From: a virus
Taxonomy: Duplodnaviria > Caudoviricetes
DNA length: 64,000 bases
Direction: 5' to 3' (one strand)
IMG/VR virus record: IMGVR_UViG_2061766007_000925
Location: 6,821-70,820 of that record
The first letter of the stretch is position 1, and every line of letters begins with the position of its first letter. A program made the translations under genes and the position numbers. This document shows positions 5,213-58,737 of the stretch, piece by piece. Below the pieces are notes generated by a model. It did no database searches. It was not told where the DNA came from and worked only from the letters and a program-made list of their open reading frames with translations.

Positions 5213-5643
5213 TCGCTCTCTCCTTCCATCTTTGCACCGCAGTTCGGACAGTAATTCGATTTGAACACGCCGACCTTCTCGCCGCATTTGTCGCAAGCGT
5301 ACTTCTTTGTGCCTTCCCATTCGCCGTGCAATACTTGAACAATTTTCCACTTCCCCGTCTTCTGCTTCGGAGTGACGGGTGGTAAATCCGATATCGCGTT
5401 GTAACCATCGCATCTTGAACACTTCCCTCCGTTCTGATGAATAGAACACGCATAACAGAGTGCTTTCAATGCCGCTTCTCTGTTCACCGAATCCTCGCAA
5501 GGCTCGGCTTTGAGTGCGGCGATTGCCATGTCAAAAGCATCTACTATTTCTTGATACTCATCTGTCGAATAATCATATTCATCATCTGATTTGTAGTTGT
5601 CTTGAACTCCTTTTAATATCTCTATCGCTTCTTCATTCATCAT
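5209..5643 (-). CDS. zinc-ribbon hypothetical protein
   Basis: KYACDKCG...SNYCPNCGAKM C-terminal Zn ribbon. Confidence 0.7.
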   Translation of the reverse strand: MMNEEAIEILKGVQDNYKSDDEYDYSTDEYQEIVDAFDMAIAALKAEPCEDSVNREAALKALCYACSIHQNGGKCSRCDGYNAISDLPPVTPKQKTGKWKIVQVLHGEWEGTKKYACDKCGEKVGVFKSNYCPNCGAKMEGESE

Positions 5644-6894
5644 TCACTCACCCCCATGCAATAAAATTGTGTTTTCATTTACCTTTCCAATCTTGCTTTC
5701 GTTTCCATCATACCCATCTTTCCACGGGCTTTCCGTAGTATCTAGTATTACGACGGGTACACATGTCAACCGCTGAAACATACTTCTAGGCTTTGAAAAC
5801 CTTTTGCAATAATCGATTGCATCGTCTTTATCAACAACAATTCCGAGCGGATTATTGTTGTAAGCTGCATAAATTAAATAAGCTTTACCCATTTCCATTC
5901 ACCTGCCTTTCAATGCCTGCCAATTCTTCAATCCATTTCAATTTAACTCGCCTATCATACAATCTGCACAATATCACAAGTTTTTTTTCGGTCATTCCTA
6001 GTGTTTTATATTTCTTATATATGCGAAAGAAATTTCGTGTTTTAGCCACTCACTCATCTCCTTTCGTTGCGGTCTGCTTCGGAACATCCCAATCTTTTCC
6101 AAATTCTTCTTCCATCTTATCAAGCAACGTTTGCTTTCCATCTTCCGTTGCAGGAATGATTGTCGGCACTTCTTCCATTACTTTAAATACTTCGTTGAGT
6201 TTGCTTTCTAAAATATTTGCATCAATCAATCTTCCGTGGTGTTCGGGAAGTGGTGTGCCTGCTGCAACAGCGTTAAGGATGTTATTTATCAAAGTCTTCC
6301 CACTCCTTTGACTAAGGATAATATGGTAAGTCTTCAGCATTTCAAGAGCACTCTCAGGTAGATTAACCAATATTTGCATTCTTACCCTCGCTTTCCATCC
6401 TAAGTTTCTTTGCACGTAATACCTCTCTGTCGGTTTCTTTAACATCCCGACCATCACAGCACTTAACGCACTGTACTCGCCACTTGGTGCTTTTGTTCTT
6501 TTTGCGTTTCTCAAAGAAACCAAATCCCACGGGCACATAACAACCACATTTATAGCAATAACCAGGATATCTATTTCTCATTATCTACCTCCTGATAAGG
6601 TTCAGGTAAAACCATCCATGCGATTATGCCGTCTTCATTGGGCTTTTCCTTGTTACAGACTCGGCACACAACCTCGTTCTCCTCATAGTACCCTCTCTCT
6701 TTGCTCCACTTCGGTACTTTAACAGTTAAAAGCACCTTCTTGTAGGGAGGAGGTGTCTGCTCCGTTGTGGGTGTCCATTTCAATTCGTCCATTGTCTTGT
6801 CCTCCTTAATAAAAGTAATGATGTTCGCCGTCGAAAAATCCGTCATACACGAGATTTTTTCTATGCCAACTATGTCCACTATTATAGCTCTCAT
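5644..6894 (-). CDS. small hypothetical ORFs (5644-5898, 6050-6379, 6363-6581 Zn-finger, 6571-6894 DUF551-like)
   Basis: RBSs and overlapping junctions; CYKC/CVKC motifs; IIAWMVLPEPY. Confidence 0.6.
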
Positions 6895-40009: not shown

Positions 40010-40774
40010 TTAGATATAGCACTTGATGACTAATTGCTTGATTTTCTTTCCCGCCGCCTTGGAGTAATTCTCTTCCACACTGAACTCTCCTGTAAGGTTG
40101 TATTTTGAGCCCCTTGCTCCGATAATCTCGTGTTCGGGCTTGTTGTTTGTGACGATTGCCTTTGAGCCCTCTCTCATGACAAAATCGAGCCTTACAGGGG
40201 AACTATCATAGGTGGAGTGCTCAGGGAGATATGTGATTGAAGTATATCCGGGATGAGTGTAATCGGTCTCTTTCAGCCTTGTGATAAAATCCTGTTTCGC
40301 TACGCTGTCGCTCTGTAAGGTGTTCATAAGGGATTGGATATTAGAGTTGTTGATTGTATCCATTCCGAGCATACGCCCTAAAGTAGCTCCGTCGGCGTAT
40401 TTGTATCCCATAACAGCCTGTGAGAGTGGTTTCATGCCGTTGTCCATCTTGGATATATCATTCTGAATATCATACTTGTCATATCCCGCCGAGGTTGTCC
40501 ATGTGCTCTGAGGCGAGCCTACCTTGCCTGTGGCAAGGAAATAATTGATATCAAAGGATTTGGAACAGTTGACGTACATCTTCTCGTTTGAGCCCTTCGG
40601 GAGATTGTACTTTCCAGCTTCGTCTCCTGTCTGTCCCATTGCGCTCTGTAACGCCTTAACCTGTGCGTCCTGTTCGCTGTCGGTCATCTTGGTAAAATCG
40701 AGCCCTGTAATCTTCGGGGTCTCTTCCTTAGGGGGCAATTTAGCTACGCCCTTGGTTGCTCCTGTGCTTCCCAT
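40010..40774 (-). CDS. VIP2-like ADP-ribosyltransferase (variant)
   Basis: MDNGMKPLSQAVMGYKY; GYTSIT; NKPEHEIIGARGSKY (ExE); N-terminus MGSTG. Confidence 0.75.
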   Translation of the reverse strand: MGSTGATKGVAKLPPKEETPKITGLDFTKMTDSEQDAQVKALQSAMGQTGDEAGKYNLPKGSNEKMYVNCSKSFDINYFLATGKVGSPQSTWTTSAGYDKYDIQNDISKMDNGMKPLSQAVMGYKYADGATLGRMLGMDTINNSNIQSLMNTLQSDSVAKQDFITRLKETDYTHPGYTSITYLPEHSTYDSSPVRLDFVMREGSKAIVTNNKPEHEIIGARGSKYNLTGEFSVEENYSKAAGKKIKQLVIKCYI

Positions 40775-40789
40775 GTAATCGCCCTCCTA

Positions 40790-41530
40790 TCATGTGTTCT
40801 TCTTCTTGAACTTTTGGTCTTTCGCCTGACCTACCCACGTAGCTGTTACATGGACATATCCATCCTTACCCTTGTGAACACTATTCGGGTCAAACTTGAA
40901 GACAGAATTGCTATTGTGTAGGTACTCGCCCTCACCATCATTGCCTCCCTTATGAGAGACATATCCTCCGCCACCTTTGTTGGCAGGAGTTGTAATGTCA
41001 ATCCACACGCCATGTTTGTTGGCGTATGTTCCGATGGGAATAGTGGTTGAAGACAAGAAACCATTTACCTGTATCAATCCATCGGAAGTCTCATTCTTCA
41101 GGTAGCTCACAACCTGTTCGGGGGTCATGCTTTGATACTCGGAAGCACCGAAAATCTGAAAATCACACTGTCTTACTGTGTGGATTGCCTTGTGAAGCTC
41201 GAACTTATTCAGTGCCTCATACAGGTTGGCTGCTTTTTGCTTCATAGAAGCTGTCATCTGGTCCCACGGCGTCTTATACAGGTCATTGTTCATGTTGATA
41301 TATCCCGAACCTGTATAATAGTCGATTGCGCTCTCCTGTGCCGGTGTCAGACCTTTCTCCCACTCAGCCATATTTGACATCTTGGGATTATTGAACCACT
41401 TAACAGTGCTACTTACGTTACTTGTGAAGTTTGTTACGCCGTCTACAACCTGCTCTCCTGTGTCAGGTGCTTTGATATACTCAGATTCCTGTATCGGCTT
41501 AGCACTGATTTTCTTTCCTGAGCTTCCCAT
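40790..41530 (-). CDS. VIP2-like ADP-ribosyltransferase (R-S-ExE)
   Basis: AIDYYTGSGYINMN; HTVRQ; GFLSST; GEGEYL; N-terminus MGSSG. Confidence 0.85.
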   Translation of the reverse strand: MGSSGKKISAKPIQESEYIKAPDTGEQVVDGVTNFTSNVSSTVKWFNNPKMSNMAEWEKGLTPAQESAIDYYTGSGYINMNNDLYKTPWDQMTASMKQKAANLYEALNKFELHKAIHTVRQCDFQIFGASEYQSMTPEQVVSYLKNETSDGLIQVNGFLSSTTIPIGTYANKHGVWIDITTPANKGGGGYVSHKGGNDGEGEYLHNSNSVFKFDPNSVHKGKDGYVHVTATWVGQAKDQKFKKKNT

Positions 41531-42782: not shown

Positions 42783-42971
42783 TCAAAACAAAAGGTGCAT
42801 TTTAGGCTTGTCTGTTTGGCTCTTCTCCCAACAGGTTTTACCCATGCCACGCTTTCGGTTTTCAAGGCTCTTCAGCCTCTTCCCACATCGCAAACAATAC
42901 TTGTGGAGTTTTTCTTCTTTGGTCTTCTCATCTTCCATAGTCACGCACTCAATAGAGATATCATAGCGCAC
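42783..42971 (-). CDS. DUF6011-like zinc finger
   Basis: CLRCGKRLKS..NRKRGMGKTC. Confidence 0.7.
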   Translation of the reverse strand: MRYDISIECVTMEDEKTKEEKLHKYCLRCGKRLKSLENRKRGMGKTCWEKSQTDKPKMHLLF

Positions 42972-43927
42972 GGAACAGCGTACTCCTCTTCCACCTCTCC
43001 TGTTTTGATGCCCGTTTCGAGGCGCTTAATGTTCCTGAGCGCTTCCACTAATTCCCCTGTCTGATAGACACCTATCTTGTCTCTGACAAGGTTGATTTCC
43101 CATGTTGTAAGTCCTGTATTCTGAGCGATATCCTTGCTCTGACAAGATTGAACCTGTAACAATCGCCTTACACCCTGATATAGCACCAAAAGCAACCTTA
43201 GCGACGGCTCTCCGAGCTCTTTGCACTCTTCGAGTAGCTTAAAAGCGAGCTTAGGCTTACCTGACAAGATTGCGTCAACCCAGTGAAAGATTGCGTCGGT
43301 CGGTGGCTGATAGATTGTACCATCGTCCATAAGCGTATTAAACGCTTCTCCCGTTGTCGTAAGCTCAATGGAGCTGATTTCATCGGTAAATCCGATTGGT
43401 CTCTCATCATTTTTCGCCTCCACATACTGAGATATCTTATCGAGCTCATTCAGAATGCGCCCATAGTCCTTTTCGCACACCCTGATAAGCTCTTGGCAAT
43501 CCGTAGTAGACAAGGGAACTCTTGCCTTTATATGCTTGGTCAAAACAGGCTCAGATAACGGGTCAAACTGAAGTATCATATCCCGTCCTGAGAAGTAAGA
43601 ATAGAACTTCGAGCGCTTGTCCAACTTGGTCACGATGTAGACCAACGTGTTCTTCTCAAGCAAGCCCTCTATCTTCTCCCATGCTCCTTCGTTCTTTTGG
43701 AACTCAGGGTCATCCCGACAGACAAAGCAAAATGTCTTACCTAAAAGACCTGCTCCCTTGAACTTCAGCGCCTCAGCAACAGTGTCCACACGCTTGATTA
43801 CCTTATCAGCGCTCTCGGCTATCCGATTGATGTAAATGTTCTGTACCTCAATCTCTTCTCCCGAAAACACATATAGCGATTGTGTAGTGCCTTCTCGCAC
43901 TTGCTCTTTGATGGTAGCGTATGTCAT
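42941..43927 (-). CDS. holA: DNA polymerase III delta-like clamp-loader subunit
   Basis: SLYVFSGEEIEV; LDKRSKFY; LIRVCEKDYGRILNELDKI; AIFHWVDAIL. Confidence 0.85.
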   Translation of the reverse strand: MTYATIKEQVREGTTQSLYVFSGEEIEVQNIYINRIAESADKVIKRVDTVAEALKFKGAGLLGKTFCFVCRDDPEFQKNEGAWEKIEGLLEKNTLVYIVTKLDKRSKFYSYFSGRDMILQFDPLSEPVLTKHIKARVPLSTTDCQELIRVCEKDYGRILNELDKISQYVEAKNDERPIGFTDEISSIELTTTGEAFNTLMDDGTIYQPPTDAIFHWVDAILSGKPKLAFKLLEECKELGEPSLRLLLVLYQGVRRLLQVQSCQSKDIAQNTGLTTWEINLVRDKIGVYQTGELVEALRNIKRLETGIKTGEVEEEYAVPCAMISLLSA

Positions 43928-44124
43928 GTGGTCGCCTTTCTCTGAGGGTCAACCACCTTGCCACAACGAGGACAGTAGGCGTAGTCACAAATGTTCACCT
44001 TATTGCCTGTCTCACCGACAACAGCCTGACAAAAGCTCGTCTTCTTGCAATGTGGACAGATAAACTTTTGGTTCTTCGGGCGGTCATCATACCTTATCCA
44101 GTTACTCCTTAAAATGTCACTCAT
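43924..44124 (-). CDS. zinc-ribbon protein
   Basis: CPHC...YCPRCG. Confidence 0.65.
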   Translation of the reverse strand: MSDILRSNWIRYDDRPKNQKFICPHCKKTSFCQAVVGETGNKVNICDYAYCPRCGKVVDPQRKATT

Positions 44125-44147: not shown

Positions 44148-44176
44148 ATTATATACTATTTTTACCGATTTTTCAA
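44148..44176 (-). promoter_or_regulatory. sigma-A promoter overlapping the MTase stop
   Basis: TTGAAA-17-TATAAT. Confidence 0.65.
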
Positions 44177-45129
44177 GTACCTTCGGTATATGCGCCGAAC
44201 TTCTCTTCAATGTTCTTCGGGTTACCCTTAAAGAACACAAGCACGTTTTGGTGATGTCTCCCTACCTTTCGGGATTGCTCGAAATACTTAGGACAACGCA
44301 CCCCAAGGCTCATTATCCTGTTCTCAAGTATCATCTCGTTATAGTACAGGAAACCAGCGTCCTGAAACGCTCTTATCGTGTCGGGGACAAATCCATACAT
44401 AATCCCCTTGTTATCCCGTATCTCCTCTACCACGATTACAGCAAAGGTGTCATCCTTCAATACGTTATAGCTCGCTGATATAATTGCTCTATATCTCTCC
44501 AAGAACTCCTGATACGTTCTCTGATTACTTAAATCCCGTCCGTCCTCTGAGTAAACTTCAAGATTGTAATACGGGGGACAAGCAAGAAACATATCAAAAG
44601 TATCATCAGCCAAAGCCATCGGAATGTAAGTATAGCTATCACCGCACTTCCACACGGGCGTCCCGAACAGCTCATCACCATAAATCTCAGATATCTTTTC
44701 CCAATTTTCGACGTTGGCTTCCACCTGTGTCGGGTTCAGGTCTACACCCAAGTAGTCCCTCCCAAGTATCGCTGAGACAGCTCCTCGAACGTGTCCTCCA
44801 GCAAAAGGGTCAAATATCAGGTCACCCTGTCGGCTAAACCACCTGACAAGTATCTCACATAAGAACGGGTCAAATGTACTGATATTCCCATTGCGCTCTA
44901 AGCCCTTATAGCCAGGGTCATAATCGAACTTGTTGATATACGGCGTATTCGACTTCGCCGTAATGTTCCTGACATTCTCAGCCCTGTTCTTCAGTATATG
45001 CTCCCACTCATTCCTCTTCTTCAGCCACTCACCCACCTGTGAGTCCAAGATGGAAAACGGGGGAACTAAATACCTTTCCCTTAACGATTTAACGGGCAAT
45101 TTTAATCTTTCTTGCGTAAATAAAGGCAT
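44173..45129 (-). CDS. amino-type (N6A/N4C) DNA methyltransferase-like protein
   Basis: IFDPFAGG motif I; GVDL; CPPYY motif IV; HQNVLVFFKG. Confidence 0.85.
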   Translation of the reverse strand: MPLFTQERLKLPVKSLRERYLVPPFSILDSQVGEWLKKRNEWEHILKNRAENVRNITAKSNTPYINKFDYDPGYKGLERNGNISTFDPFLCEILVRWFSRQGDLIFDPFAGGHVRGAVSAILGRDYLGVDLNPTQVEANVENWEKISEIYGDELFGTPVWKCGDSYTYIPMALADDTFDMFLACPPYYNLEVYSEDGRDLSNQRTYQEFLERYRAIISASYNVLKDDTFAVIVVEEIRDNKGIMYGFVPDTIRAFQDAGFLYYNEMILENRIMSLGVRCPKYFEQSRKVGRHHQNVLVFFKGNPKNIEEKFGAYTEGT

Positions 45130-46159
45130 CTTTCAATATCCCCCATGCTTTAGATTGTTCTATCGGATAGAACAGGTAAACACCCCACACGTACTCAATG
45201 CTGTGAGGAAAGTAGCCTGTCTCCTTCCATACTGTATGAATTAGCACCTCTATACAGTGCATATAATACTTCTCATCGTAGTCAAGCATTCCCTTGTCGG
45301 CAAAGTAGATATACTCAACAGCGCACTTCCAACAGCACCCACATCTGTTTGGCAACAGCTTCACCCCATAAGTGCTTTCAATGCGCTCCCTGTGTTTCGC
45401 CTTAAACCTATAGGTCATCACACATGATTGCGCTGTCTCAAGCAACTCTCTCTCACCCTCGAACAGCTCCAATGTGGACGACAAATTCATCAACGGAGTC
45501 TCCACCCTAACACTCGGTATGAACTTCCTGATTACCGACTTATACGCTTGCCACATCTCGATTGCATCGTCACCAGCTGTAGCGAACTCCAAGTCCTCAA
45601 TGGAAGCTGTATAGTAGTTACCCATGCCAAGCCTTGTACCTATCCCGTTTGATATCCCCCATTGAAGCGCCATATTTGCAATGATGATATTCTTCAGTGG
45701 ATGGTCGGGATATAAACTCTTGCCCTGTAACTTCACGTTCTGAACTATCAATGGAAGGTCAAGTGCCTTCGCCACGGCTTTTGCCGACTCAAGCTCCTGA
45801 GGAAAGAACTTATTCAACCCATGCACATGAAACAGATAGACATTAAAGCCTTTCTTCTTGAAGTATAGTGCTGTGGCTGTGCTGTCCTTTCCTCCTGAGA
45901 AACCGATGATTATATTCTTCTTCTTGCACTCGGCGTTGATTATCTCAGCGTCATATTCTCGGCTCGTGTAGGTCAGGTAGCGTTTGCATTCCCCATACTC
46001 GTTGAAGATATCCTCGAACATCTTCATCTCAGGAATGAAGCAATTACCAAAGCGTCTGTCCTCATCATCATTGTTTGATAGCTCCCTGTAAAGAGTCTCG
46101 AACTGAAAGAATATCGGGTGAATGTACGAATACATCCCCTCATGTACTATCGTTTGCAT
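45089..46159 (-). CDS. QueC-like PP-loop ATPase
   Basis: GFSGGKDS PP-loop; HPLKN; SC...CGCCWKC Zn site. Confidence 0.8.
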   Translation of the reverse strand: MQTIVHEGMYSYIHPIFFQFETLYRELSNNDDEDRRFGNCFIPEMKMFEDIFNEYGECKRYLTYTSREYDAEIINAECKKKNIIIGFSGGKDSTATALYFKKKGFNVYLFHVHGLNKFFPQELESAKAVAKALDLPLIVQNVKLQGKSLYPDHPLKNIIIANMALQWGISNGIGTRLGMGNYYTASIEDLEFATAGDDAIEMWQAYKSVIRKFIPSVRVETPLMNLSSTLELFEGERELLETAQSCVMTYRFKAKHRERIESTYGVKLLPNRCGCCWKCAVEYIYFADKGMLDYDEKYYMHCIEVLIHTVWKETGYFPHSIEYVWGVYLFYPIEQSKAWGILKDAFIYARKIKIAR

Positions 46160-46162
46160 ACT

Positions 46163-46954
46163 TTACACCTCATGATATCCGACTATCCATAAAAGGTCAC
46201 CCTCCTGAAGGAACTTTTTGCACTTCGCTTCATACACAGGGTCAAGAGGTACATCGCCAATGGACGTTTCCACTTTATCCCCATAACGCTGTGTAGGTGA
46301 GCCCTCAGTCCAAGGCACGAGCTCGTAGTTTATCGGGTTGAACAGGGGTCGATACTTACGAATAGTTTTTTCAGGATTGCCACCCGTGAGAACACCAAGC
46401 ACTTTCACATCAGTACGCCCAGCATTAACAAGACCTTGCATTATCCCACACAGCGTTATTCCGCCGCCTACCGGCACCACAATCCGCTTTACGTCCTCAG
46501 GTATATTAACTGTTTGGGATGCTACCACAAACACCGAGGAAGGCGCTTGTACGCCAAACGGGATTAAGGTCATACCGAATTGAGCCGCATAGTCTCTCGC
46601 CCGTTTCTTCAGCACCACCATGCGCCCATCAGGAATAGCGTGTATGTACGTGTGAGAATTTTCCCTCATCCTGTTAATTGTCGGAGTAGCCTGTCCCTCA
46701 GGAAGGAAGATATGGCACGTATAGCCAAGATACTCACACAGTTGGCTCACTATCTCACACTGTAAGCTGTCCCTTGAACCACAGGTGACAAAACACTTAT
46801 TATCATGGCGCTTCATGAGCTCGAATATGCACTCAGCCTTTCCACCTGAACAGCCACACACCTCAATCAGGTCATTTCTCTTCAGGTATATTCCGTCTAC
46901 TTTCTCTATCTTCGATATCATTCCATCCACGCCTTTCTGATATCCAGTAACCAA
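46163..46954 (-). CDS. PLP-dependent fold-type-II enzyme (D-cysteine desulfhydrase/ACC deaminase-like)
   Basis: IYLKRNDL..GCSGGKAE; IVVPVGGGITLCG; LDPVYEAK. Confidence 0.82.
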   Translation of the reverse strand: MVTGYQKGVDGMISKIEKVDGIYLKRNDLIEVCGCSGGKAECIFELMKRHDNKCFVTCGSRDSLQCEIVSQLCEYLGYTCHIFLPEGQATPTINRMRENSHTYIHAIPDGRMVVLKKRARDYAAQFGMTLIPFGVQAPSSVFVVASQTVNIPEDVKRIVVPVGGGITLCGIMQGLVNAGRTDVKVLGVLTGGNPEKTIRKYRPLFNPINYELVPWTEGSPTQRYGDKVETSIGDVPLDPVYEAKCKKFLQEGDLLWIVGYHEV

Positions 46955-47763
46955 TTATCAAAGGTCATCTGTTTGTTGATACCACCAACTGAAAGCTCCC
47001 TCAGGTACTTGCTCGTTATGTTTATGCCGGCGATATATTTTAAAGGTCTCCCAAGGTCAAGACGGGCAAGGCATTCAGCCCTAAAAGCCTTCCAAAACAA
47101 CGCAAGGTCATACTTGTCCTTATCCGTTGTTTCAAAAGGCAAATCATCATCCTTCTTTGTTGTTCCAAGGCACAGGTTTGCGCCTATCTTGAAAGAATTT
47201 GCTCCCGACACCTTCTCAATATTGTCCATTACAAGCAACAGGTACTTGTTGAACTTCTCAGGGTCATAAAGACAGAGAAGGTTGACATCCCCAGGAACAG
47301 CACAACACTTCTTGATAATATCCTCATCACCACCACGGGTTATGCGATGGTAATACTCAAGAACTTCCTCGCTCGTGTAGGTGTCCATATAGAACACTGT
47401 CGCCCTACTCTTGATGGTTGGAAGTGTGTTCTCTATCGTGCTCAGGGTCATGATAAAGTATGCGTTGTTAGGAGGCTCTTCCGTCACCTTCAGCATTGCG
47501 TTTTTCGCTGCAACTGACATATTATCAGCGTCGGCAAAGAGATAAACTGTCGGTGATACAACCTTATATGCCTGCTCAATTGCCTCTCTCACGCTATCCA
47601 CATCAGAACCCCAATCCTGACATATTCCAAGCGACCATAAGGAGTTTTGAACTATCGTCTGTCTTCCACTCCCCTTCTCGCCCACAAATATTGAGAACCG
47701 AGGGAAATTACCTGTCTCAAGTATCTCCCTCAGCCGTTCCTGTAGCTTCCTCTGTCCTATCAT
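46918..47763 (-). CDS. holB: DNA polymerase III delta-prime-like subunit
   Basis: GEKGSGRQT; ADNMSVAAKNAMLKVTEEPP; LPTIKSRA. Confidence 0.85.
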   Translation of the reverse strand: MIGQRKLQERLREILETGNFPRFSIFVGEKGSGRQTIVQNSLWSLGICQDWGSDVDSVREAIEQAYKVVSPTVYLFADADNMSVAAKNAMLKVTEEPPNNAYFIMTLSTIENTLPTIKSRATVFYMDTYTSEEVLEYYHRITRGGDEDIIKKCCAVPGDVNLLCLYDPEKFNKYLLLVMDNIEKVSGANSFKIGANLCLGTTKKDDDLPFETTDKDKYDLALFWKAFRAECLARLDLGRPLKYIAGINITSKYLRELSVGGINKQMTFDNWLLDIRKAWME

Positions 47764-47858: not shown

Positions 47859-48887
47859 TCACGCCTCCAAACAGAACTGAAACAGGTTTGCCTCTACCAT
47901 TGCCTTAGGGCTTGTGTCCCACTTGATATCAGCGTTCAGCTTTAACAGTACCTCAAGCAATGCCTGACATCTCACGAAGTAGCTGTCCTCTTTTTTGGAC
48001 AGCTCATCATGGTAGTAATTCGGGATTTGGGTAAGGTCAAGGCTTCCTGTAAGGAAATACTTGCAAAGGTCAAGGACAAACGACGTATAGTTTCTGACGA
48101 ACAGCTTTAAGTCCTTGCCCTGTCGGTGCAACTCCTCAATCTTCTCCATCATCCCACGGGTATCAGGAGCTACCAGGTCGTCGGTTAGGTGTAGCATTTC
48201 GTCATAATCAACTGTGCCGATTGCTGAAACGACATTCTGAACTGTGAGCTTAGGACTATATGCCAAACATTTGTCCATCATCGTGATTGCGTCACGCATT
48301 CCTCCGTCGGCTAACTTGGCTATATACTCGATAGCATCCATGTCCCATGATAAAGACTTATTCGTTGCCGACTCGCTTCCGAGGATATAGTGAAGTCTCA
48401 GCCCCACGCCCTTTTGGCTTATACGCTGAAAATCGTACCGCTGTACCCTCGAAAGAATTGTCTTTGGTATCTTCTGTGGGTCTGTGGTACAGAATATGAA
48501 TATGGCGGTCTCAGGCGGCTCCTCAAGCAACTTGAGCATTGCTTGCCACGCTGAGTTTGAGAGTGAGTGACACTCGTCAATGATATAGATACGATACTTA
48601 CTTCCGTCAAGGGTTGCCATACGGGATTGCTGAATAATTGTCCTAACGTCATTGACGCTGTTATTGCTAGCAGCGTCAATTTCGGTCGGTGTTCCTTTTC
48701 CATTGTTAATCTCGTTGGCGAATATCCTTGCCGTGGTAGTCTTTCCTGTTCCGGCTCCACCACAAAACAGGTAAGCGTGTTTGATTTCTCCACTCCTCAA
48801 CTGTTGTCTGAGAATGGTCTTGACACTTCCCTGTTCCGTCACATCCTCAAAGGTTGTGGGTCGGTACTTGACAGCAAGTGATTGCAT
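47859..48887 (-). CDS. dnaX: DNA polymerase III gamma/tau-like clamp-loader ATPase
   Basis: LAVKYRP; GGAGTGKTT; EIDAASNNSV; IIDECH; TILSRVQR; GGMRDA. Confidence 0.93.
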   Translation of the reverse strand: MQSLAVKYRPTTFEDVTEQGSVKTILRQQLRSGEIKHAYLFCGGAGTGKTTTARIFANEINNGKGTPTEIDAASNNSVNDVRTIIQQSRMATLDGSKYRIYIIDECHSLSNSAWQAMLKLLEEPPETAIFIFCTTDPQKIPKTILSRVQRYDFQRISQKGVGLRLHYILGSESATNKSLSWDMDAIEYIAKLADGGMRDAITMMDKCLAYSPKLTVQNVVSAIGTVDYDEMLHLTDDLVAPDTRGMMEKIEELHRQGKDLKLFVRNYTSFVLDLCKYFLTGSLDLTQIPNYYHDELSKKEDSYFVRCQALLEVLLKLNADIKWDTSPKAMVEANLFQFCLEA

Positions 48888-52030: not shown

Positions 52031-52581
52031 TTGCTTACCTCCTGTAAAAAGCTCTCCATGTCATAGTCAAAGAATACTCTCTTCTTCATACCCGAAACAG
52101 CAATCGGTTGAACACATTTACCCACCTTGAGGTCATTGCCCATTATGACTTTGCTAAGATTAAAATCATATCGGATGCTTTTATAACCAAACTTTCTGGC
52201 GTCGGCTAAAAGCCCAATCGGGATAAACAAAGTCACATCGTGGTCAATCCACCAACACATTATTCCCGCTATAGCGCCGTCTATCTTGGATTTCTCAAGC
52301 AATCCCTCCCACTGTTTATCCGAGATATTCCCATAAAAGCCTTGGAGCTTTCCTCTCTTGTTGAGCTTGGGAACACTGTGGATGCTCAGGGTGTTCCCGT
52401 GTACCGACTTGCACTCGATATAATATATGCGAGGCTTTCGGTACACGATAAAGTCACACACGTTTGAGCTTCCGACGTAACCTGTCGTTTGGTCGTGTAG
52501 TCTGTCCACGCTCACGTTGGGAGTTTTCTCGAAGCACTCCTGAACGACATCCTCAAACTGTTTGCCTCTGTTTACAGCCAT
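52027..52581 (-). CDS. recU: RecU-like Holliday junction resolvase
   Basis: NRGKQFE; CDFI; YIECKS; ISDKQW. Confidence 0.8.
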   Translation of the reverse strand: MAVNRGKQFEDVVQECFEKTPNVSVDRLHDQTTGYVGSSNVCDFIVYRKPRIYYIECKSVHGNTLSIHSVPKLNKRGKLQGFYGNISDKQWEGLLEKSKIDGAIAGIMCWWIDHDVTLFIPIGLLADARKFGYKSIRYDFNLSKVIMGNDLKVGKCVQPIAVSGMKKRVFFDYDMESFLQEVSK

Positions 52582-53492
52582 TGTCTCATCCTCCTGAAGG
52601 TGTCCTGAAAGATGGTATAGTTGTCGCTTGCTCTCTTGGCGCTGTCAGCTGCGCAACTCCTGATAGCGAACACTACTCTCTCAAATGCCGGAAACTTCTC
52701 AAGCGCCTCTTTGAAGCACTTGCTGATAACCTCAGGGTCTTGTCCGAATGCACCACAACCCCATGCGCCTAATACGAGATTATCAACGCCTGCAAGGATA
52801 GCCGACTTGATAATCTGTTCCGTTCTCTGTCGGATAACCTCATACTCTTTCTCTCTCGACCTGATAAAGCACGAAGGAGCTGGACACGTGATGACATCCA
52901 TGGTGTAAGGCGTAACCTCACTGTAAGTGGTGTCATCCTTGAAGAATGTTACATCGACCGAATAGATAAGGTTATCAAGGTAAACCGAGTCAAACATCTT
53001 TCTTCCGTTTATGCCGAAAGAAGCAATATTGGCGTCGTAGTAATACTTCTTTGCCACATCCGTCGTGATGGATTGATACAGGTTGGAGCACCGACAAATG
53101 TTCTCTTCCTGTGTGGTAGCGCCTGTCTTGACAAGTCCACCAGGAACAAGGGCGTCAGCAAAGTTAAGGATAGCTGTTGTGCCACCATACTTCTTAACGA
53201 GCCTTCTTCCAGCCTCAACTGTACCCATCGGCTTTACCTCGACCTTCATGCGAGGGTTAGGAGTAAAGTCAATGTCATCCTCTCTGATAAGGTAGTCATA
53301 GACGAACGTACCTAAACCTGTGAGCCTGCGGGTCTGTATAGCAAAACGTCCTAAAGATTGCTTAACAGTGTCCTCAAACACGGCAACCTCAAAGTCATGC
53401 ACCCTGTGCGCCTTGGGAGCTGTTGTAAAATCCGTATAGTCCTTAAAACTCATATCAGTAATTTCCTTGATTGTCTTTTTCTTCTTTGCCAT
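52572..53492 (-). CDS. TIGR02452/DUF2263 bacterial PARG-type macrodomain
   Basis: AILNFADALVPGG..TGATTQEENICRCSNLY; VITCPAP; LVLGAWGCGAFG. Confidence 0.88.
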   Translation of the reverse strand: MAKKKKTIKEITDMSFKDYTDFTTAPKAHRVHDFEVAVFEDTVKQSLGRFAIQTRRLTGLGTFVYDYLIREDDIDFTPNPRMKVEVKPMGTVEAGRRLVKKYGGTTAILNFADALVPGGLVKTGATTQEENICRCSNLYQSITTDVAKKYYYDANIASFGINGRKMFDSVYLDNLIYSVDVTFFKDDTTYSEVTPYTMDVITCPAPSCFIRSREKEYEVIRQRTEQIIKSAILAGVDNLVLGAWGCGAFGQDPEVISKCFKEALEKFPAFERVVFAIRSCAADSAKRASDNYTIFQDTFRRMRQWL

Positions 53493-56195: not shown

Positions 56196-57281
56196 TCACT
56201 TTACAAGGCTCAGAACAGCCGTTACCTTACAAGCCTCATCCACGAACTTAATGGAGTTAGGCTCTCCGAAGTACAGGTCAACAGCGTCTCCTGTCTGTGC
56301 CTTTACCTGAGAAGACAGCATATAGAGATAAATGAAACAGGAAGTCTCAACCATGTTGTCCTTCTTAAGGTACTTAATTGTCTCCACACTGTCCGATTGC
56401 TTACTCGACAGCACAAGTCCGTCCTCTGTAAAGCTGATACCCACCTTGTCCTCATCAAAGTCCTTGACGAACAGGGAAAGTCTGTCCAAAGCCTGTAGGA
56501 GTTCCTGTTTCGGAACTTGGCACATACTAGGATAATCAGACTTCAGGTATCTGTTGATGTCGTCCACGTGGAACTCATCAATCCCCGGCATAGCATATCC
56601 TAACAGGCTGAGGTTTTCTCCGTCGAACACAAGGCGATTGCCTTTCTTATAGATGCTGATGGGAGTCTCACTTGTGTAAACACCAAGCATTTCCATCACT
56701 GCTGCGCTGACGAGAACGGGTGTAGTGACTACCTCCTTCTCGTAACAGCTTGCCGTGTTGGTATCGGTGGTCAGTGCTGTCTCACCCATATAGTAATTCA
56801 CATACTGAGGAATTTCAACTGTTAATGCGAGCGACGGCTTGAGCGACCTGAGAATGGTGCTGATATCCTGTGCTGTAATCTCACCTATCTTGTCATCATC
56901 GTAAAACGAGATATTGAACAGGGGGTCAGTGTACTCTACCACCTTACCTGTGCCGGCGTCAATCTCCATGGGGATTTTGTACGTTCCATTGCCCTTAATC
57001 TCAAGGAAGTTATCGGAAGCGTCAAGGGTTGTCACCTCGCTTGTGAGCTTAGAAATCAGCTTTACGAACTGATTTGCCTGAACAACAGCGTAAAAATCCT
57101 CGGCTTCCACGGGCTCATGCACGTACATGAAGTTATCGTAGTCAGTGGTTATCAGGGTAAGTGTTCCGTCCTGAACTTCCACGGCAATCATCTCGGTGAT
57201 GGGCTTGTTCCTGTCGTTACCCACTCCTTTGAATGCCTTTGACACCATCTCCTGAAGTTTGGTTGTTTTGATTTGTAGCAT
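56196..57281 (-). CDS. dnaN: DNA polymerase III beta-like sliding clamp
   Basis: 361 aa; LTLITTDYDNF; KQELLQALDRLSLF; three-domain clamp-like pattern. Confidence 0.75.
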   Translation of the reverse strand: MLQIKTTKLQEMVSKAFKGVGNDRNKPITEMIAVEVQDGTLTLITTDYDNFMYVHEPVEAEDFYAVVQANQFVKLISKLTSEVTTLDASDNFLEIKGNGTYKIPMEIDAGTGKVVEYTDPLFNISFYDDDKIGEITAQDISTILRSLKPSLALTVEIPQYVNYYMGETALTTDTNTASCYEKEVVTTPVLVSAAVMEMLGVYTSETPISIYKKGNRLVFDGENLSLLGYAMPGIDEFHVDDINRYLKSDYPSMCQVPKQELLQALDRLSLFVKDFDEDKVGISFTEDGLVLSSKQSDSVETIKYLKKDNMVETSCFIYLYMLSSQVKAQTGDAVDLYFGEPNSIKFVDEACKVTAVLSLVK

Positions 57282-57470: not shown

Positions 57471-58349
57471 CTACTCCTTCTTATACCTGTCGCTGATTAT
57501 CATAGGAACAGCGTGTTTCCAATCGACATTGTGATGAAGACGGGCGTGATTGTTTCCGATAATCCCTATCTTCACAAACGACGGACAGCACATAACTGAG
57601 TAAAAGCTCTTGCGATATGTACCATCCCCCACGTAAGCCCCTGTAAGCCCGCTATCTCGGTCTTTCTGTTGGGTGTCTGTCTGATTGATACACACATCCA
57701 TGATAGTCGCAAATAAGTCCCCTCTCATCCCGCCTAAACAGTATGTGTTGACATCCTCATTCAGATATCCAACAAACGTAAAGGGACGCTCTGTGGAACA
57801 CAGGAAGGTATTCATTGCCTTTCTCATGTAACGGGCTTTGAAGTGTGAGCCGTCGATGCCCCCTAAAAAATCTCCGTTCTGTGCCATGCACAAGGTCTTC
57901 ATCGGAGGAATGCTGATATAGTAATCGAGCAAGCACCCAAATACCATATCAAGGTTGGTCGGGAACAGCGCTCTCAGGTGTCCGTCTTCCTCATACCTGA
58001 ACTGAAATTCATAGTAGTCATCGTCGAACTCCATGAAATAAGTGTAACCCAACTCACGTGCTTTTGTAAAGCAGGCATTTCGAGCGTACACAACTGTATT
58101 CGTCCTGTTCTCGCTATCCATTCTGTCGAAGGTCTTAGCCACCTCATCCTTATTGAAGGTAAGCACCTTGTCAAACCCGTACATCTTAACGTACTCAGGG
58201 TAGGTCTTGTCCTCATCGTCAAGGAGCACGAACCAATCCCCTGTATACCCGTACTTCTGTAGTGATTTAACTGTCAGTACATTCTCAGGGCTTCCGTGGC
58301 TGATAACGAAAATACAGAAGTCAGCTAAAGTCCTTTGCTCTCTTTGCAA
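57471..58349 (-). CDS. TAGT/GREB1-like GT-A glycosyltransferase
   Basis: FVISHG; VYARNACF; FMEFDDDY; GYLNEDVNTY; YRKSFYSVMC; RLHH. Confidence 0.75.
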   Translation of the reverse strand: MQREQRTLADFCIFVISHGSPENVLTVKSLQKYGYTGDWFVLLDDEDKTYPEYVKMYGFDKVLTFNKDEVAKTFDRMDSENRTNTVVYARNACFTKARELGYTYFMEFDDDYYEFQFRYEEDGHLRALFPTNLDMVFGCLLDYYISIPPMKTLCMAQNGDFLGGIDGSHFKARYMRKAMNTFLCSTERPFTFVGYLNEDVNTYCLGGMRGDLFATIMDVCINQTDTQQKDRDSGLTGAYVGDGTYRKSFYSVMCCPSFVKIGIIGNNHARLHHNVDWKHAVPMIISDRYKKE

Positions 58350-58737
58350 GGTTTCCGTCCCCCCTTATCTCGTTAAGCCGTCTTGACAGTTTCACGTACC
58401 CGTTGGCAATGGCGTCATCAATGTCTATCATCACCAATGCTGAATGCTCCATGAGCTCCTGTACCTTCTTGTCGGAGTGAGCGTAGTAATCGGCAATCGC
58501 TTCATAGTTGAACACGATATGTCGGCTCGCAGCAAGTTTCAGGAAGCTCTTCTCCTCAGGGGGTATGTCTGAAGCATCTATCTCCTGTATCAGAGACACA
58601 TACTTATGAGCGTCGTACAGGAAACGAAGGTCAGGCTTTTCCCCCTTGGGCTCATATTGAGGAATGTTTACGTTTCGGGAATACTTGACGCTACCTTTCA
58701 TAGCGTCATTCACTTTTCTTGCTTCAAATAAAGGCAC
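58321..58737 (-). CDS. conserved partner of TAGT-like glycosyltransferase
   Basis: AASRHIVFNYEAIADYYAH...ELMEHSALVMIDID.AI.NG. Confidence 0.65.
   Translation of the reverse strand: MPLFEARKVNDAMKGSVKYSRNVNIPQYEPKGEKPDLRFLYDAHKYVSLIQEIDASDIPPEEKSFLKLAASRHIVFNYEAIADYYAHSDKKVQELMEHSALVMIDIDDAIANGYVKLSRRLNEIRGDGNLAKRAKDFS

Follow-up and report, generated by a model that had tools for sequence, protein, structure and literature searches.

We propose that a PLP enzyme, a QueC-like PP-loop ATPase and a methyltransferase-fold (MTase) protein, encoded side by side within the clamp-loader operon of this phage, form a coupled, modular system for DNA-base hypermodification. We give this proposal about an even chance of being right; its chemistry, target base and order of steps are what we infer from sequence, structure models and gene context. 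The group placed on the DNA base is most likely a complex one and not a plain methyl. CheckV rates the 70,820-bp virus genome of the record as 100% complete, and the source of the cassette is a gut or rumen phage. The window, the whole stretch of DNA analyzed, is 64,000 nucleotides long and contains the following genes, all on the minus strand:

47859..48887, minus: clamp-loader gamma/tau ATPase (PF13177, AAA, DNAX lid and gamma3 domains; phrog_5846, E 8e-87)
46918..47763, minus: clamp-loader delta-prime, the upstream neighbour (PF13177, DNA_pol3_delta2, E 6e-17; phrog_5846)
46163..46954 (likely start 46921), minus: PLP enzyme of the ACC-deaminase/D-cysteine-desulfhydrase family, a minimal form of 252-263 aa
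45089..46159, minus: QueC-superfamily PP-loop ATPase, 356 aa, with an N-terminal extension of ~80 aa and a C-terminal helical extension
44173..45129, minus: N6/N4-type methyltransferase-fold transferase, 318 aa (PF01555)
43924..44124, minus: 66-aa zinc-ribbon ORF between the MTase and delta genes (weak Pfam zinc-ribbon matches)
42941..43927, minus: clamp-loader delta, the downstream neighbour (PF21694, E 6e-14; phrog_20214, E 3e-45)

The three cassette genes are translationally coupled and located between delta-prime and delta. In the sequence, the likely ATG start of the PLP gene and the delta-prime stop overlap in the letters ATGA; the database lists the protein (P0105) with 252 aa. The PP-loop gene follows the PLP stop after a gap of 3 nt and overlaps the MTase gene by 41 nt. 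The open reading frames, their Pfam matches, the clamp-loader flanks, the gap and the overlaps bear out the tight linkage of the trio between holB and holA that a sequence-only reading had described. A homologue of the zinc-ribbon ORF occupies the equivalent position in another locus (L029). A nucleotide search with the 6-kb region gave no match among 50,697 phage records.

The MTase matches Pfam N6_N4_Mtase (PF01555) with 60.6 bits (cut-off 26.7), as well as phrog_12517 (E 6e-80) and phrog_498 (E 6e-69). Motif I (DPFAGG, residue 107) precedes motif IV (CPPY, residue 184), an order permuted with respect to the Pfam model. Within the family, motif IV reads CPPY (n = 110) or SPPY (n = 10), motif I reads DPFAGG (n = 107), and the acidic residue of motif II (GVDL, GIDL or GHEL) is conserved. 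The residues F86, P88, D107, G111, P185, P186, Y187, L190, E191, Y193, Y206 and K301 are invariant. Motif IV is of the (D/N/S)PP(Y/F) type with Cys replacing Ser, and most closely resembles the N4-cytosine type. The Pfam score and motifs I and IV agree with the amino-MTase fold assigned earlier, and the protein keeps an intact SAM-type cofactor site together with a C/SPPY loop of the kind that activates the exocyclic nitrogen of C or A. It begins with MPLF, and its stand-alone relatives begin with M[PQA]LF, which is possibly a clamp-binding peptide. MTases of other phages carry a ParB domain in place of this tag.

The PP-loop protein matches Pfam QueC/PP-loop with 31 bits (cut-off 22) over a stretch that spans the SGGKDS region. 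This motif (residues 88-93) is invariant across 26 relatives with identities down to 25%, as are E122, P154, K156, N157, D198, S245-C246, C273 and C276; C279 is retained by at least 90% of them. The AF2 model (pLDDT 91.4) aligns with QatC (9y01_B; Z 14.8, rmsd 4.8, 271 residues, N-terminal extension included), Cap9 (9nto_B; Z 14.7, rmsd 3.1, 176 residues) and QueC (3bl5; Z 14.1). TtuA comes next (Z 11.9), and LarE is a neighbour in the same range (Z about 11-12 for the two). Among the PADLOC models, QueC scores best (E 3e-8), and those for DndC (E 0.0088) and SspD (E 0.0039) match ~25 residues at the P-loop only. The four cysteines, C246-x26-C273-xx-C276-xx-C279, form a predicted zinc site; their spacing is a variant of the canonical C(x)8CxxCxxC of QueC, like the C(x)19CGxC of QatC. 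The protein is therefore closest to the carboxylate-adenylating QueC/QatC/Cap9 group, with a four-cysteine QueC-type site, and the earlier QueC-like assignment holds on Pfam, PADLOC and structural grounds alike.

The likeness to QueC, QatC and Cap9 (PF06508) extends to the fold (Z 14-15), the SGGxDS loop, the four-cysteine site and the [V/H]Px[R/K]N loop, but not to the substrate pocket. Canonical QueC carries the substrate motifs YxQxHxxE, VPxRN and YPDC (PMC13329287). When these are placed by motif order and structural alignment range, not residue by residue, the phage family has hGLNKxxPxE at the first, with E122 alone retained, HPxKN at the second, with P154, K156 and N157 invariant, and GGDC at the third (AGDD in this phage's protein). 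The first and third motifs are thus missing, and the essential aromatics of the QueC/Cap9 deazaguanine pocket are absent from the family in the 26-relative alignment. The partners also differ, being a DNA MTase fold or an SplB-like radical-SAM enzyme and not queD/queE, QatA/B/D or a CD-NTase. In the published PF06508 survey, a methyltransferase link is never mentioned (the word occurs 0 times).

These comparisons bear on two other readings of the QueC-like enzyme. It could be a protein ligase that joins an acid, such as a carboxylic nucleobase, to a protein of the phage or its host, with this phage's MGSxG-tagged proteins or the ligase's own partner enzyme as candidate targets. The best structural matches favor such a role, since QatC and Cap9 both target protein N-termini (PMC13279940; PMC13329287). 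We nevertheless regard it as clearly unlikely: an N-terminal glycine is not conserved among the adjacent partners (M[PQA]LF or ParB stands at the start of the MTases, and the radical-SAM N-termini vary), the pocket aromatics of YxQxHxxE and YPDC are lost, no QatA/B/D or CD-NTase gene adjoins it in the loci examined, and its fusion into a DNA MTase fold points to a DNA-borne substrate. Alternatively, a remnant or host-dependent 7-deazaguanine pathway could use the enzyme to process CDG or preQ0 from the host, which would then be inserted into DNA. The Pfam QueC match is in line with this, and one source labels a relative 7-cyano-7-deazaguanine synthase. However, the canonical substrate motifs are lost, the gene is linked to an MTase or radical-SAM gene, and queD or queE was never seen in the loci examined. 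Moreover, FolE (PF01227), QueD (PF01242) and TGT/DpdA (PF01702) are without a match in the complete genome, QueE is absent, and the radical SAM model PF04055 reaches only 13.7 bits, under its cut-off. This extends the absence of folE, queD, queE and dpdA, reported earlier for the window, to the whole genome; it places the cassette outside the 7-deazaguanine pathway, which we rejected and consider extremely improbable even in the remnant form.

The PLP protein matches Pfam PALP with 45 bits (cut-off 35); against TIGR01275 it scores 21.2 bits, far under the curated cut-off of 289.4. Its family profile finds ACC deaminase (1f2d, E 1e-11) and D-Cys desulfhydrase (4d8t, E 2e-10) in the PDB, and the best structural matches of the AF2 model (pLDDT 92.7) are 1j0a (Z 23.5) and 4d99 (Z 23.4). 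In the family alignment, K39, S63 and Y241-E242-x-K244 are invariant and fall in the GGNK, RQSNQ and DPVYEGK stretches of the alignment to 1f2d. We take K39, S63 and Y241-E242 to be the equivalents of K51, S78 and Y294-E295 of ACC deaminase, and the Tyr-Glu pair to be presumably of the ACC-deaminase and not the desulfhydrase form. The fold-type II fold, these residues and the PDB matches sustain the enzyme type proposed earlier, and the alignments place the protein as a distant, shortened branch of the ACC deaminase/D-cysteine desulfhydrase family. It shares the fold (Z 21-23.5), the Schiff-base Lys, the RQS-type Ser and the DPxYExK motif with these enzymes, but is ~80 residues shorter and usually occurs as a domain inside a DNA MTase. 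Free ACC or D-Cys is an unlikely substrate.

The distribution of the three families in other phages supports a functional unit. The PP-loop family comprises 288 clusters (50% identity, E ≤ 1e-30) among 1.84 billion representatives. Its 104 loci represent 85 clusters at 95% identity, and we counted the 44 with at least 1.2 kb on each side, taking an MTase as linked when it lay within 1.5 kb of the PP-loop gene (3 kb for the divergent form). The MTase family was the neighbour in 33, an SplB-like radical-SAM gene in 8 and neither in 4, two of which have a ParB protein downstream. A PLP gene was found in just 4 of the 44 (it is absent from about 90%), and a PP-loop gene in none of the 80 PLP loci from IMG/VR. 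In ~45 of these 80, the PLP domain is inserted into the MTase, splitting it into an N and a C half, and in ~20 more the MTase is adjacent; examples of the PLP-MTase link are Pam4 gp70 and P0093/94/98/100. The PLP-MTase genes have no conserved third partner, no neighbour family occurring in more than 8 of the 80 loci. The PLP enzyme is present on at least 134 viral contigs, and cultured carriers include phages of Staphylococcus, Mycobacterium, Microcystis and Pseudanabaena. Among those in culture, Alsa_1 has the trio, and mycobacteriophage Vincenzo, Pam4 and Mae-JY30 have the MTase with the PLP enzyme.

Fusions are known for every pair among the three components. P0346 consists of the MTase N half, the PP-loop protein and the MTase C half, P0313 is a PP-loop and PLP fusion, and in L021 and L098 the PP-loop gene is located between the halves of a split MTase. 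Other domains are recruited as well: GNAT is fused to the PP-loop protein in P0257, a SET domain adjoins it in L014, and an Asp/Asn beta-hydroxylase-like domain lies within the MTase in P0093 and P0095. The accessory domains are inserted into one particular MTase loop, which appears to lie beside the cofactor site. The linkage of the cassette genes is far beyond chance. Co-occurrence elsewhere, which had been set as a check, was thus found, and the recurrence, fusion and mutual insertion of the genes substantiate their reading as a functional unit. Besides this phage, the full trio is found in Staphylococcus phage Alsa_1 and in L007, L027 and L098; it is a minority combination, and the two accessory enzymes may act independently. 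In a quick IQ-TREE tree of the MTases, PLP-linked and PP-loop-linked members are mixed, with 12 label changes each. A single transferase chemistry thus seems to work with both partners.

Some MTase family members stand alone, such as Listeria B054 gp77 and Enterococcus phiFL3A gp36, and gp11 of the haloarchaeal virus HCTV-2 has only another AdoMet-MTase gene after it. Plain methylation is therefore viable as the base activity. The MTase could be an ordinary m4C/m6A enzyme that transfers only methyl, with the PLP and PP-loop enzymes acting indirectly, in removing the inhibitory product SAH or in recycling or altering the SAM pool, or serving unrelated metabolism. Its cofactor and catalytic motifs are canonical save for Cys in place of Ser, Asp or Asn, and the amino-acid end of SAH could come within reach of a PLP site that lies next to the SAM pocket. 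However, product clearance does not account for the recruitment of GNAT, SET and Asp/Asn-hydroxylase-like domains to the same scaffold; such accessories act on an amine, a carboxyl or an adjacent C-H, none of which a methyl offers. It also leaves unexplained the equal pairing of the QueC-like enzyme with the SplB-like radical-SAM enzyme, which makes no SAH, and the insertion of whole enzymes into one MTase loop suggests a shared active-site region. We consider methylation alone rather unlikely.

A sulfur route was also weighed, in which a PLP desulfhydrase would release sulfide and the PP-loop enzyme would adenylate a base carbonyl or a carboxylate to make a thio-base or thiocarboxylate, as in DndA/DndC, TtuA and LarE. 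The PLP protein is equally close to D-cysteine desulfhydrase and ACC deaminase, four PP-loop cysteines are conserved, and TtuA and LarE are structural neighbours. Like DndA/DndC and SspA/SspD, the cassette co-encodes PLP and PP-loop enzymes that would act on DNA. But the PLP and PP-loop genes rarely occur together (4 of 44 and 0 of 80 loci), so delivery of sulfide to the PP-loop enzyme is not the logic that is conserved. The Tyr-Glu pair, presumably the ACC-deaminase form, and the cysteine pattern (C-x26-CxxCxxC), which is of the QueC/QatC zinc type, also stand against this very unlikely route. DndA differs in being a fold-type I desulfurase, and no DndB/D/E was found among the genes annotated around the cassette. 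Membership in Dnd/Ssp was rejected since the DndC and SspD models match at the P-loop only. The partner of the PLP enzyme is constantly the MTase and not the PP-loop enzyme, so the DndA/DndC-like sulfur relay of the sequence-only reading is not supported. That reading had envisaged a thio-, amido- or aminoacyl-modified base; the carboxylate-adenylating relatives and the partner counts favor the amido and aminoacyl options and disfavor the thio one.

Other substrate pathways were looked for in the complete genome. CmoA (TIGR00740) and C5-MTase (PF00145) gave no match, and there is no homologue of TET or of the thymidylate-synthase family. An hmC- or hmU-based pathway was rejected because the TET, thymidylate-synthase-family and C5-MTase genes are missing, and a Cx-SAM route as a general answer because CmoA is. 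To our knowledge, Staphylococcus and Mycobacterium hosts are not expected to make Cx-SAM. The lack of an alternative substrate pathway in the complete genome was counted in favor of a hypermodification module.

For such a module, we propose the following sequence of events. The transferase would ride behind the replication fork, via the M[PQA]LF tag or, in other phages, the ParB domain. The ParB fusions, the clamp-loader site, the tag and the SplB-like partner point to DNA as the substrate and fit the replication coupling suggested earlier. The transferase would then flip out C or A and transfer to the exocyclic nitrogen not the methyl but the part of SAM that bears the carboxyl and amine. The most economical candidate for this piece, and probably the correct one, is 3-amino-3-carboxypropyl (acp), with release of MTA. 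The closest structural relatives of the PP-loop protein activate a carboxylate by adenylation and then hand it over to an amine. We propose an amidating role, in which the QueC-like enzyme would adenylate the new carboxylate and form an amide with ammonia or another amine. The PLP enzyme would bind the alpha-amino-acid end, either aiding installation through gamma-replacement on SAM or tailoring the product later. The resulting bulky, charged adducts would block host nucleases. Counted against this scheme is the alternative radical-SAM partner, which is canonical and not a Dph2-type acp donor.

The nearest precedent is the CmoA/CmoX/CmoY system of Synechococcus phage S-B43, which produces 5-carboxymethylcytosine and its glycine amide (PMC12783734). 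There, CmoX, a C5-MTase homologue, puts a carboxymethyl on DNA cytosine, and CmoY, a homologue of asparagine synthetase that acts as an ATP-dependent amide ligase, subsequently forms the amide (PMC12783734). Both systems are phage-borne, have ParB-domain proteins as frequent neighbours and, as we propose here, combine an MTase-fold enzyme that installs a carboxyl handle with an ATP-dependent, AMP-forming amide ligase that extends it. In contrast to CmoX, which acts on C5 of cytosine, has an SPPC motif and needs Cx-SAM from the phage CmoA, the enzyme described here is of the N6/N4 type with CPPY, in a genome without CmoA or C5-MTase. The ligase belongs to the QueC clade and not to the asparagine-synthetase type, and the module here includes a PLP enzyme. 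Functional parallels also exist outside DNA. In wybutosine (TYW2, TYW4, TYW5), acp from SAM is added and then tailored by methyltransferases and a hydroxylase. In diphthamide (Dph1/2, Dph5, Dph6), the carboxylate of acp derived from SAM is amidated by Dph6, an adenine-nucleotide alpha-hydrolase (PMC3585130). Our hypothesis shares with them acp transfer followed by ATP-dependent amidation, amine methylation and hydroxylation, but their targets are a protein histidine or a tRNA base, their enzyme families are unrelated, and the proposed resemblance is functional only.

More tentatively, the cassette could belong to a phage toolkit for N-linked hypermodification of DNA of an amino-acid type, in which an N4/N6 MTase fold has been repurposed to place acp on C or A, with interchangeable tailoring enzymes: a QueC-like amidase/ligase, an ACC-deaminase-like PLP enzyme, GNAT, SET and an Asp/Asn-hydroxylase-like oxygenase. 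In this phage lineage, an orphan TET-associated glycosyltransferase may also take part. This would amount to diphthamide-like or wybutosine-like chemistry on DNA, with DNA as a third kind of substrate of the QueC fold beyond small molecules and proteins; we see it as a possibility that is less probable than the hypermodification system as such.

We found no published description of a PLP, PP-loop and N-MTase module, nor anything on ParB-MTase-ACC-deaminase fusions, Pam4 gp70, Alsa_1 or the mycobacteriophage 'carboxylate deaminase', in a search that covered few subscription journals and is weak evidence of novelty. The authors of the CmoX study did not find candidates for N6 or N4 carboxymethyltransferases (PMC12783734). 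If our proposal is true, the cassette would supply the N-linked counterpart sought in that work. The hypothesis is directly testable, since carriers of one, two or three components are in culture. Its confirmation would reveal an undescribed family of phage DNA hypermodifications at exocyclic nitrogens, spread across hundreds of viral lineages, and would bring a DNA-borne substrate within the range of the QueC fold. The enzymes would then offer a means of labelling DNA at specific sites. Whether phage DNA can be read by restriction enzymes, CRISPR nucleases and sequencing chemistries depends on such adducts.

Three genes lie tightly linked on the minus strand inside the clamp-loader operon, as proposed in the sequence-only reading; this arrangement is confirmed by the open reading frames, the Pfam and PHROGs assignments, and the delta-prime and delta genes on either side. 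Genes are oriented on the minus strand almost throughout the window, and CheckV rates the 70,820-bp IMG/VR virus record, of which the window covers 64 kb, as 100% complete. The features of this region are as follows:

47859-48887, minus strand: clamp-loader gamma/tau gene, upstream of the cassette (Pfam and PHROGs)
46918-47763, minus strand: clamp-loader delta-prime gene, upstream of the cassette (Pfam and PHROGs)
46163-46954, minus strand: PLP gene (Pfam PALP, above the curated cut-off; PHROGs 'threonine dehydratase'-like)
45089-46159, minus strand: PP-loop gene (Pfam QueC/PP-loop over the SGGKDS region, above the curated cut-off; PHROGs 'QueC-like')
44173-45129, minus strand: MTase gene (Pfam N6_N4_Mtase, above the curated cut-off; PHROGs 'DNA methyltransferase')
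43924-44124, minus strand: zinc-ribbon ORF of 66 aa, downstream of the cassette
42941-43927, minus strand: clamp-loader delta gene, downstream of the cassette (Pfam and PHROGs)

The probable start of the PLP gene is the ATG at 46921, which overlaps the delta-prime stop as ATGA and yields a 252-aa protein, as in the gene-caller output (P0105). Only 3 nt separate the PLP stop from the PP-loop start, and the PP-loop and MTase genes overlap by 41 nt, the same overlap as in the related locus L029. The three cassette genes are translationally coupled.

The best solved-structure matches of the PLP profile, which covers 27 relatives, are ACC deaminase (1f2d, E 1e-11) and D-cysteine desulfhydrase (4d8t, E 2e-10). 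The AF2 model (pLDDT 92.7) aligns with 1j0a (Z 23.5) and 4d99 (Z 23.4), ahead of other fold-type II enzymes (Z 19-20). Residues K39, S63, and Y241-E242-x-K244 are invariant in the family and fall, in the profile alignment, within the 1f2d segments GGNK, RQSNQ, and DPVYEGK. Presumably, K39, S63, and Y241-E242 correspond to K51, S78, and Y294-E295 of ACC deaminase. The window protein resembles ACC deaminase and D-cysteine desulfhydrase in fold and catalytic residues but differs in length, being approximately 80 residues shorter, and in its score, which lies far under the curated cut-off of that family.

The characterised enzymes QueC, QatC, and Cap9 adenylate a carboxylate and then form an amide. 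These are also the nearest structures to the model of the PP-loop protein (pLDDT 91.4): QatC (Z 14.8, with 271 residues aligned, N-terminal extension included), Cap9 (Z 14.7), and QueC (Z 14.1 and 13.4). Next come TtuA, LarE, ThiI, MnmA, and argininosuccinate synthase, with Z scores of 10-12. In 26 relatives, with identity down to 25%, the residues SGGKDS, E122, P154, K156, N157, D198, S245-C246, C273, and C276 are invariant, and C279 is conserved in at least 90%. Compared with the published QueC signature (PMC13329287), the family keeps the P-loop, the [V/H]Px[R/K]N loop, and the four-cysteine site, but not the YxQxHxxE and YPDC substrate motifs. The DndC and SspD models match the protein at the P-loop only. 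Because of this structural ranking and this pattern of kept and lost motifs, the PP-loop protein is best assigned to a clade of its own within the QueC superfamily. At 50% identity this clade comprises 288 clusters (E<=1e-30; 1.84 billion representatives searched), and it is almost restricted to viral and metagenomic DNA, with just three MAG contigs among 185,579 species genomes. A deazaguanine pathway is ruled out by the gene content of the complete genome, and we give it almost no credence.

Motif I (DPFAGG) of the MTase-fold protein comes ahead of motif IV, an order permuted relative to the Pfam model. Among 122 family members, DPFAGG occurs in 107, and motif IV reads CPPY in 110 and SPPY in 10. 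The family also keeps an acidic motif II, and another twelve residues are invariant. Since all of these elements are conserved, the cofactor site and the exocyclic-amine-activating loop look intact. We take Cys or Ser at the first position of motif IV to be closest to the N4-cytosine type.

The linkage of the three families extends beyond the window phage. We gathered 104 PP-loop loci from viral, metagenome, and genome collections, giving 85 clusters at 95% identity, and scored the 44 of these that have flanks of 1.2 kb or more on each side (search radius 1.5 kb, widened to 3 kb for the divergent MTase form). The MTase family lies nearby in 33 of the 44: alone in 28, with PLP in 4, and with a radical SAM protein in 1. 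Radical SAM alone is found in 7, and 4 have neither partner. Among these last four, one has a 1,647-aa ParB-bearing polyvalent protein directly downstream, and another a ParB-MTase at 2.4 kb. The radical SAM partner belongs to the PA0069/Rv2578c family, presumably a spore-photoproduct-lyase-like, DNA-acting branch. In L008 (6927-8072), L010 (6372-7523), and about 18 more loci, a SplB-like radical SAM protein of 360-380 aa replaces the MTase beside the PP-loop gene, often in the same clamp-loader slot; in L042 the PP-loop gene has both partners. In five loci (e.g., L064:5867-6853 and L084:4576-5952), the gene directly downstream of the PP-loop gene encodes a member of an unannotated family (328-458 aa) that has no Pfam hit; in L064 this gene sits between the PP-loop and MTase genes. 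In two termite-gut-type metagenome contigs, L069 (4968-10996) and L076, the PP-loop gene stands beside flagellar FliM/FliN genes; in L069 the next ORF after it exceeds 1,647 aa, has a ddrB-ParB domain, and resembles a mobile-element polyvalent protein.

On the PLP side, a profile search confirmed 134 viral loci, of which 80 were analysed. In about 45 of the 80 the PLP domain lies between the N and C halves of this MTase family, and in about 20 the MTase is adjacent. The other 15 show PLP alone. Cultured carriers include Pseudanabaena phage Pam4, whose gp70 consists of ParB, MTase N half, PLP, and MTase C half, as well as Microcystis phage Mae-JY30 and mycobacteriophage Vincenzo, with a gp1 and gp2 pair in which gp2 is annotated 'carboxylate deaminase'. 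AlanGrant is a second mycobacteriophage with MTase and PLP. No conserved third partner was found among the neighbours of the PLP-MTase loci. All three genes are present in the window, Staphylococcus phage Alsa_1, L007, L027, and L098. In Alsa_1 the PP-loop homologue (5269-5948) is split, with the SGGKDS region (5269-5364) in a different frame from 5313-5948, and the annotation of the record has two small hypothetical genes at this place. A frameshift, a pseudogene, or a sequencing error could account for the split. The Alsa_1 MTase is strongly divergent, with DPCCGW as motif I, SPPY as motif IV, and a long branch.

These distributions bear on a sulfur relay through the PLP and PP-loop enzymes. 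The two genes are rarely together (4 of 44 PP-loop loci and none of the 80 viral PLP loci), and the PP-loop cysteine pattern is of the QueC type. Such a relay is therefore very unlikely, and the Dnd-like sulfur route, one of the options first considered for the cassette, is not borne out.

Pairwise fusions were found in all combinations of the three proteins. In addition to the many MTases with inserted PLP, P0346 carries a PP-loop domain in the same MTase loop, and in P0313 PP-loop is fused to PLP. The MTase halves of L021 and of L098 are encoded by separate genes that flank the PP-loop gene, and the N half in L098 additionally has a fused PLP domain. Other domains join as well: in P0257 the PP-loop protein has a GNAT fusion, in L014 a SET domain accompanies the PP-loop/MTase scaffold, and in P0093 and P0095 the MTase contains an inserted oxygenase that is Asp/Asn beta-hydroxylase-like. 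In a quick tree of MTase C halves, the window protein falls in a well-supported clade of PP-loop-linked MTases (97% SH-aLRT, 24 rows). Outside it, PLP-linked and PP-loop-linked MTases intermix (12 label changes each; L003 and L020 are sisters), so the partners have swapped repeatedly on a single transferase family. Ligation of proteins by a QatC/Cap9-like enzyme would fit the PP-loop fold, but the partners have no N-terminal glycine motif and the domain can be fused into a DNA MTase, which makes this reading distinctly unlikely.

The cassette is a movable module, since its location varies. In 16 of the 44 PP-loop loci, not in all, it lies at the clamp loader. The delta-prime/delta slot contains PP-loop and MTase without PLP in L006, L029, and L040, and PP-loop with radical SAM in L008 and L010; the pair follows delta in L032, L039, L054, and L088 and lies beside terminase and portal genes in L004 and L014-L019. 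Stand-alone MTases start with M[PQA]LF in >30 loci, while other members have an N-terminal ParB domain instead. This tag is plausibly a clamp-docking (beta-clamp) peptide; the beta-clamp of the phage is encoded at 56196-57281. An MPLF start (M/V-P-L-F) is shared in the window by PolA (61140), the MTase (45129), and a 138-aa protein (58737).

From the observed folds, conserved catalytic residues, linkage, and fusions, we infer the following chemistry. The SAM site of the MTase is kept, including in forms with inserted domains; therefore, SAM or a close analogue is used. Plain methylation with helper enzymes would suit the family members that lack cassette partners, in Listeria B054, Enterococcus phiFL3A, and HCTV-2. 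The enzymes recruited to this scaffold, however, would all act on groups that a methyl adduct does not have: the QueC-like ligase on a carboxylate, the ACC-deaminase-like enzyme on a free alpha-amino acid, the GNAT and SET domains on amines, and the oxygenase on a C-H bond adjacent to a carboxyl or an amide. We regard plain methylation as unlikely. The complete genome encodes no donor-making enzyme in profile checks that included TET, thymidylate-synthase-family, and C5-MTase. SAM would be the sole universal donor with both an amine and a carboxylate, via its 3-amino-3-carboxypropyl (acp) group. Among MTase-fold enzymes, TYW2, spermidine synthase, and azetidine-carboxylate synthase attack SAM at its gamma-carbon, and ACC, the substrate of the nearest relatives of the PLP enzyme, is the cyclised acp part of SAM. 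We consider that the trio has about an even chance of making a non-methyl adduct on DNA; the specific scheme, in which acp is transferred and then amidated, is a more tentative possibility. Diphthamide synthesis follows the order of steps that we propose: acp is transferred from SAM, and Dph6, an adenine-nucleotide alpha-hydrolase, then amidates it (PMC3585130). Among DNA systems the nearest precedent is CmoX/CmoY, whose authors report no N6 or N4 counterpart (PMC12783734).

The window also encodes a TET-associated glycosyltransferase (TAGT; 57471-58349, minus strand; PF20691, E 3e-29), with the 138-aa protein upstream (58321-58737, minus strand). Its usual 5hmC substrate cannot be made, because TET/JBP, thymidylate-synthase-family, and C5-MTase genes are absent from the complete genome. 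TAGT is present in all three near-complete relatives that have the PP-loop gene with an MTase or radical SAM partner, and it might glycosylate the cassette product. The same phage carries a microbial-type PARG/macro-domain protein (52572-53492, minus strand; PF10021, E 4e-24) and an ADP-ribosyltransferase (40790-41530, minus strand; PF03496); the gene beside the latter (40010-40774, minus strand) has no Pfam hit.

The literature searched, including a survey of the entire QueC family from 2026, contains no description of a PLP, PP-loop, and MTase module, and that survey does not mention a methyltransferase link. The sequence-only reading had taken the cassette for a candidate new DNA-modification pathway. 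We propose that it would represent a kind of phage DNA hypermodification built on a transferase and an amide ligase, with a real chance of new chemistry.
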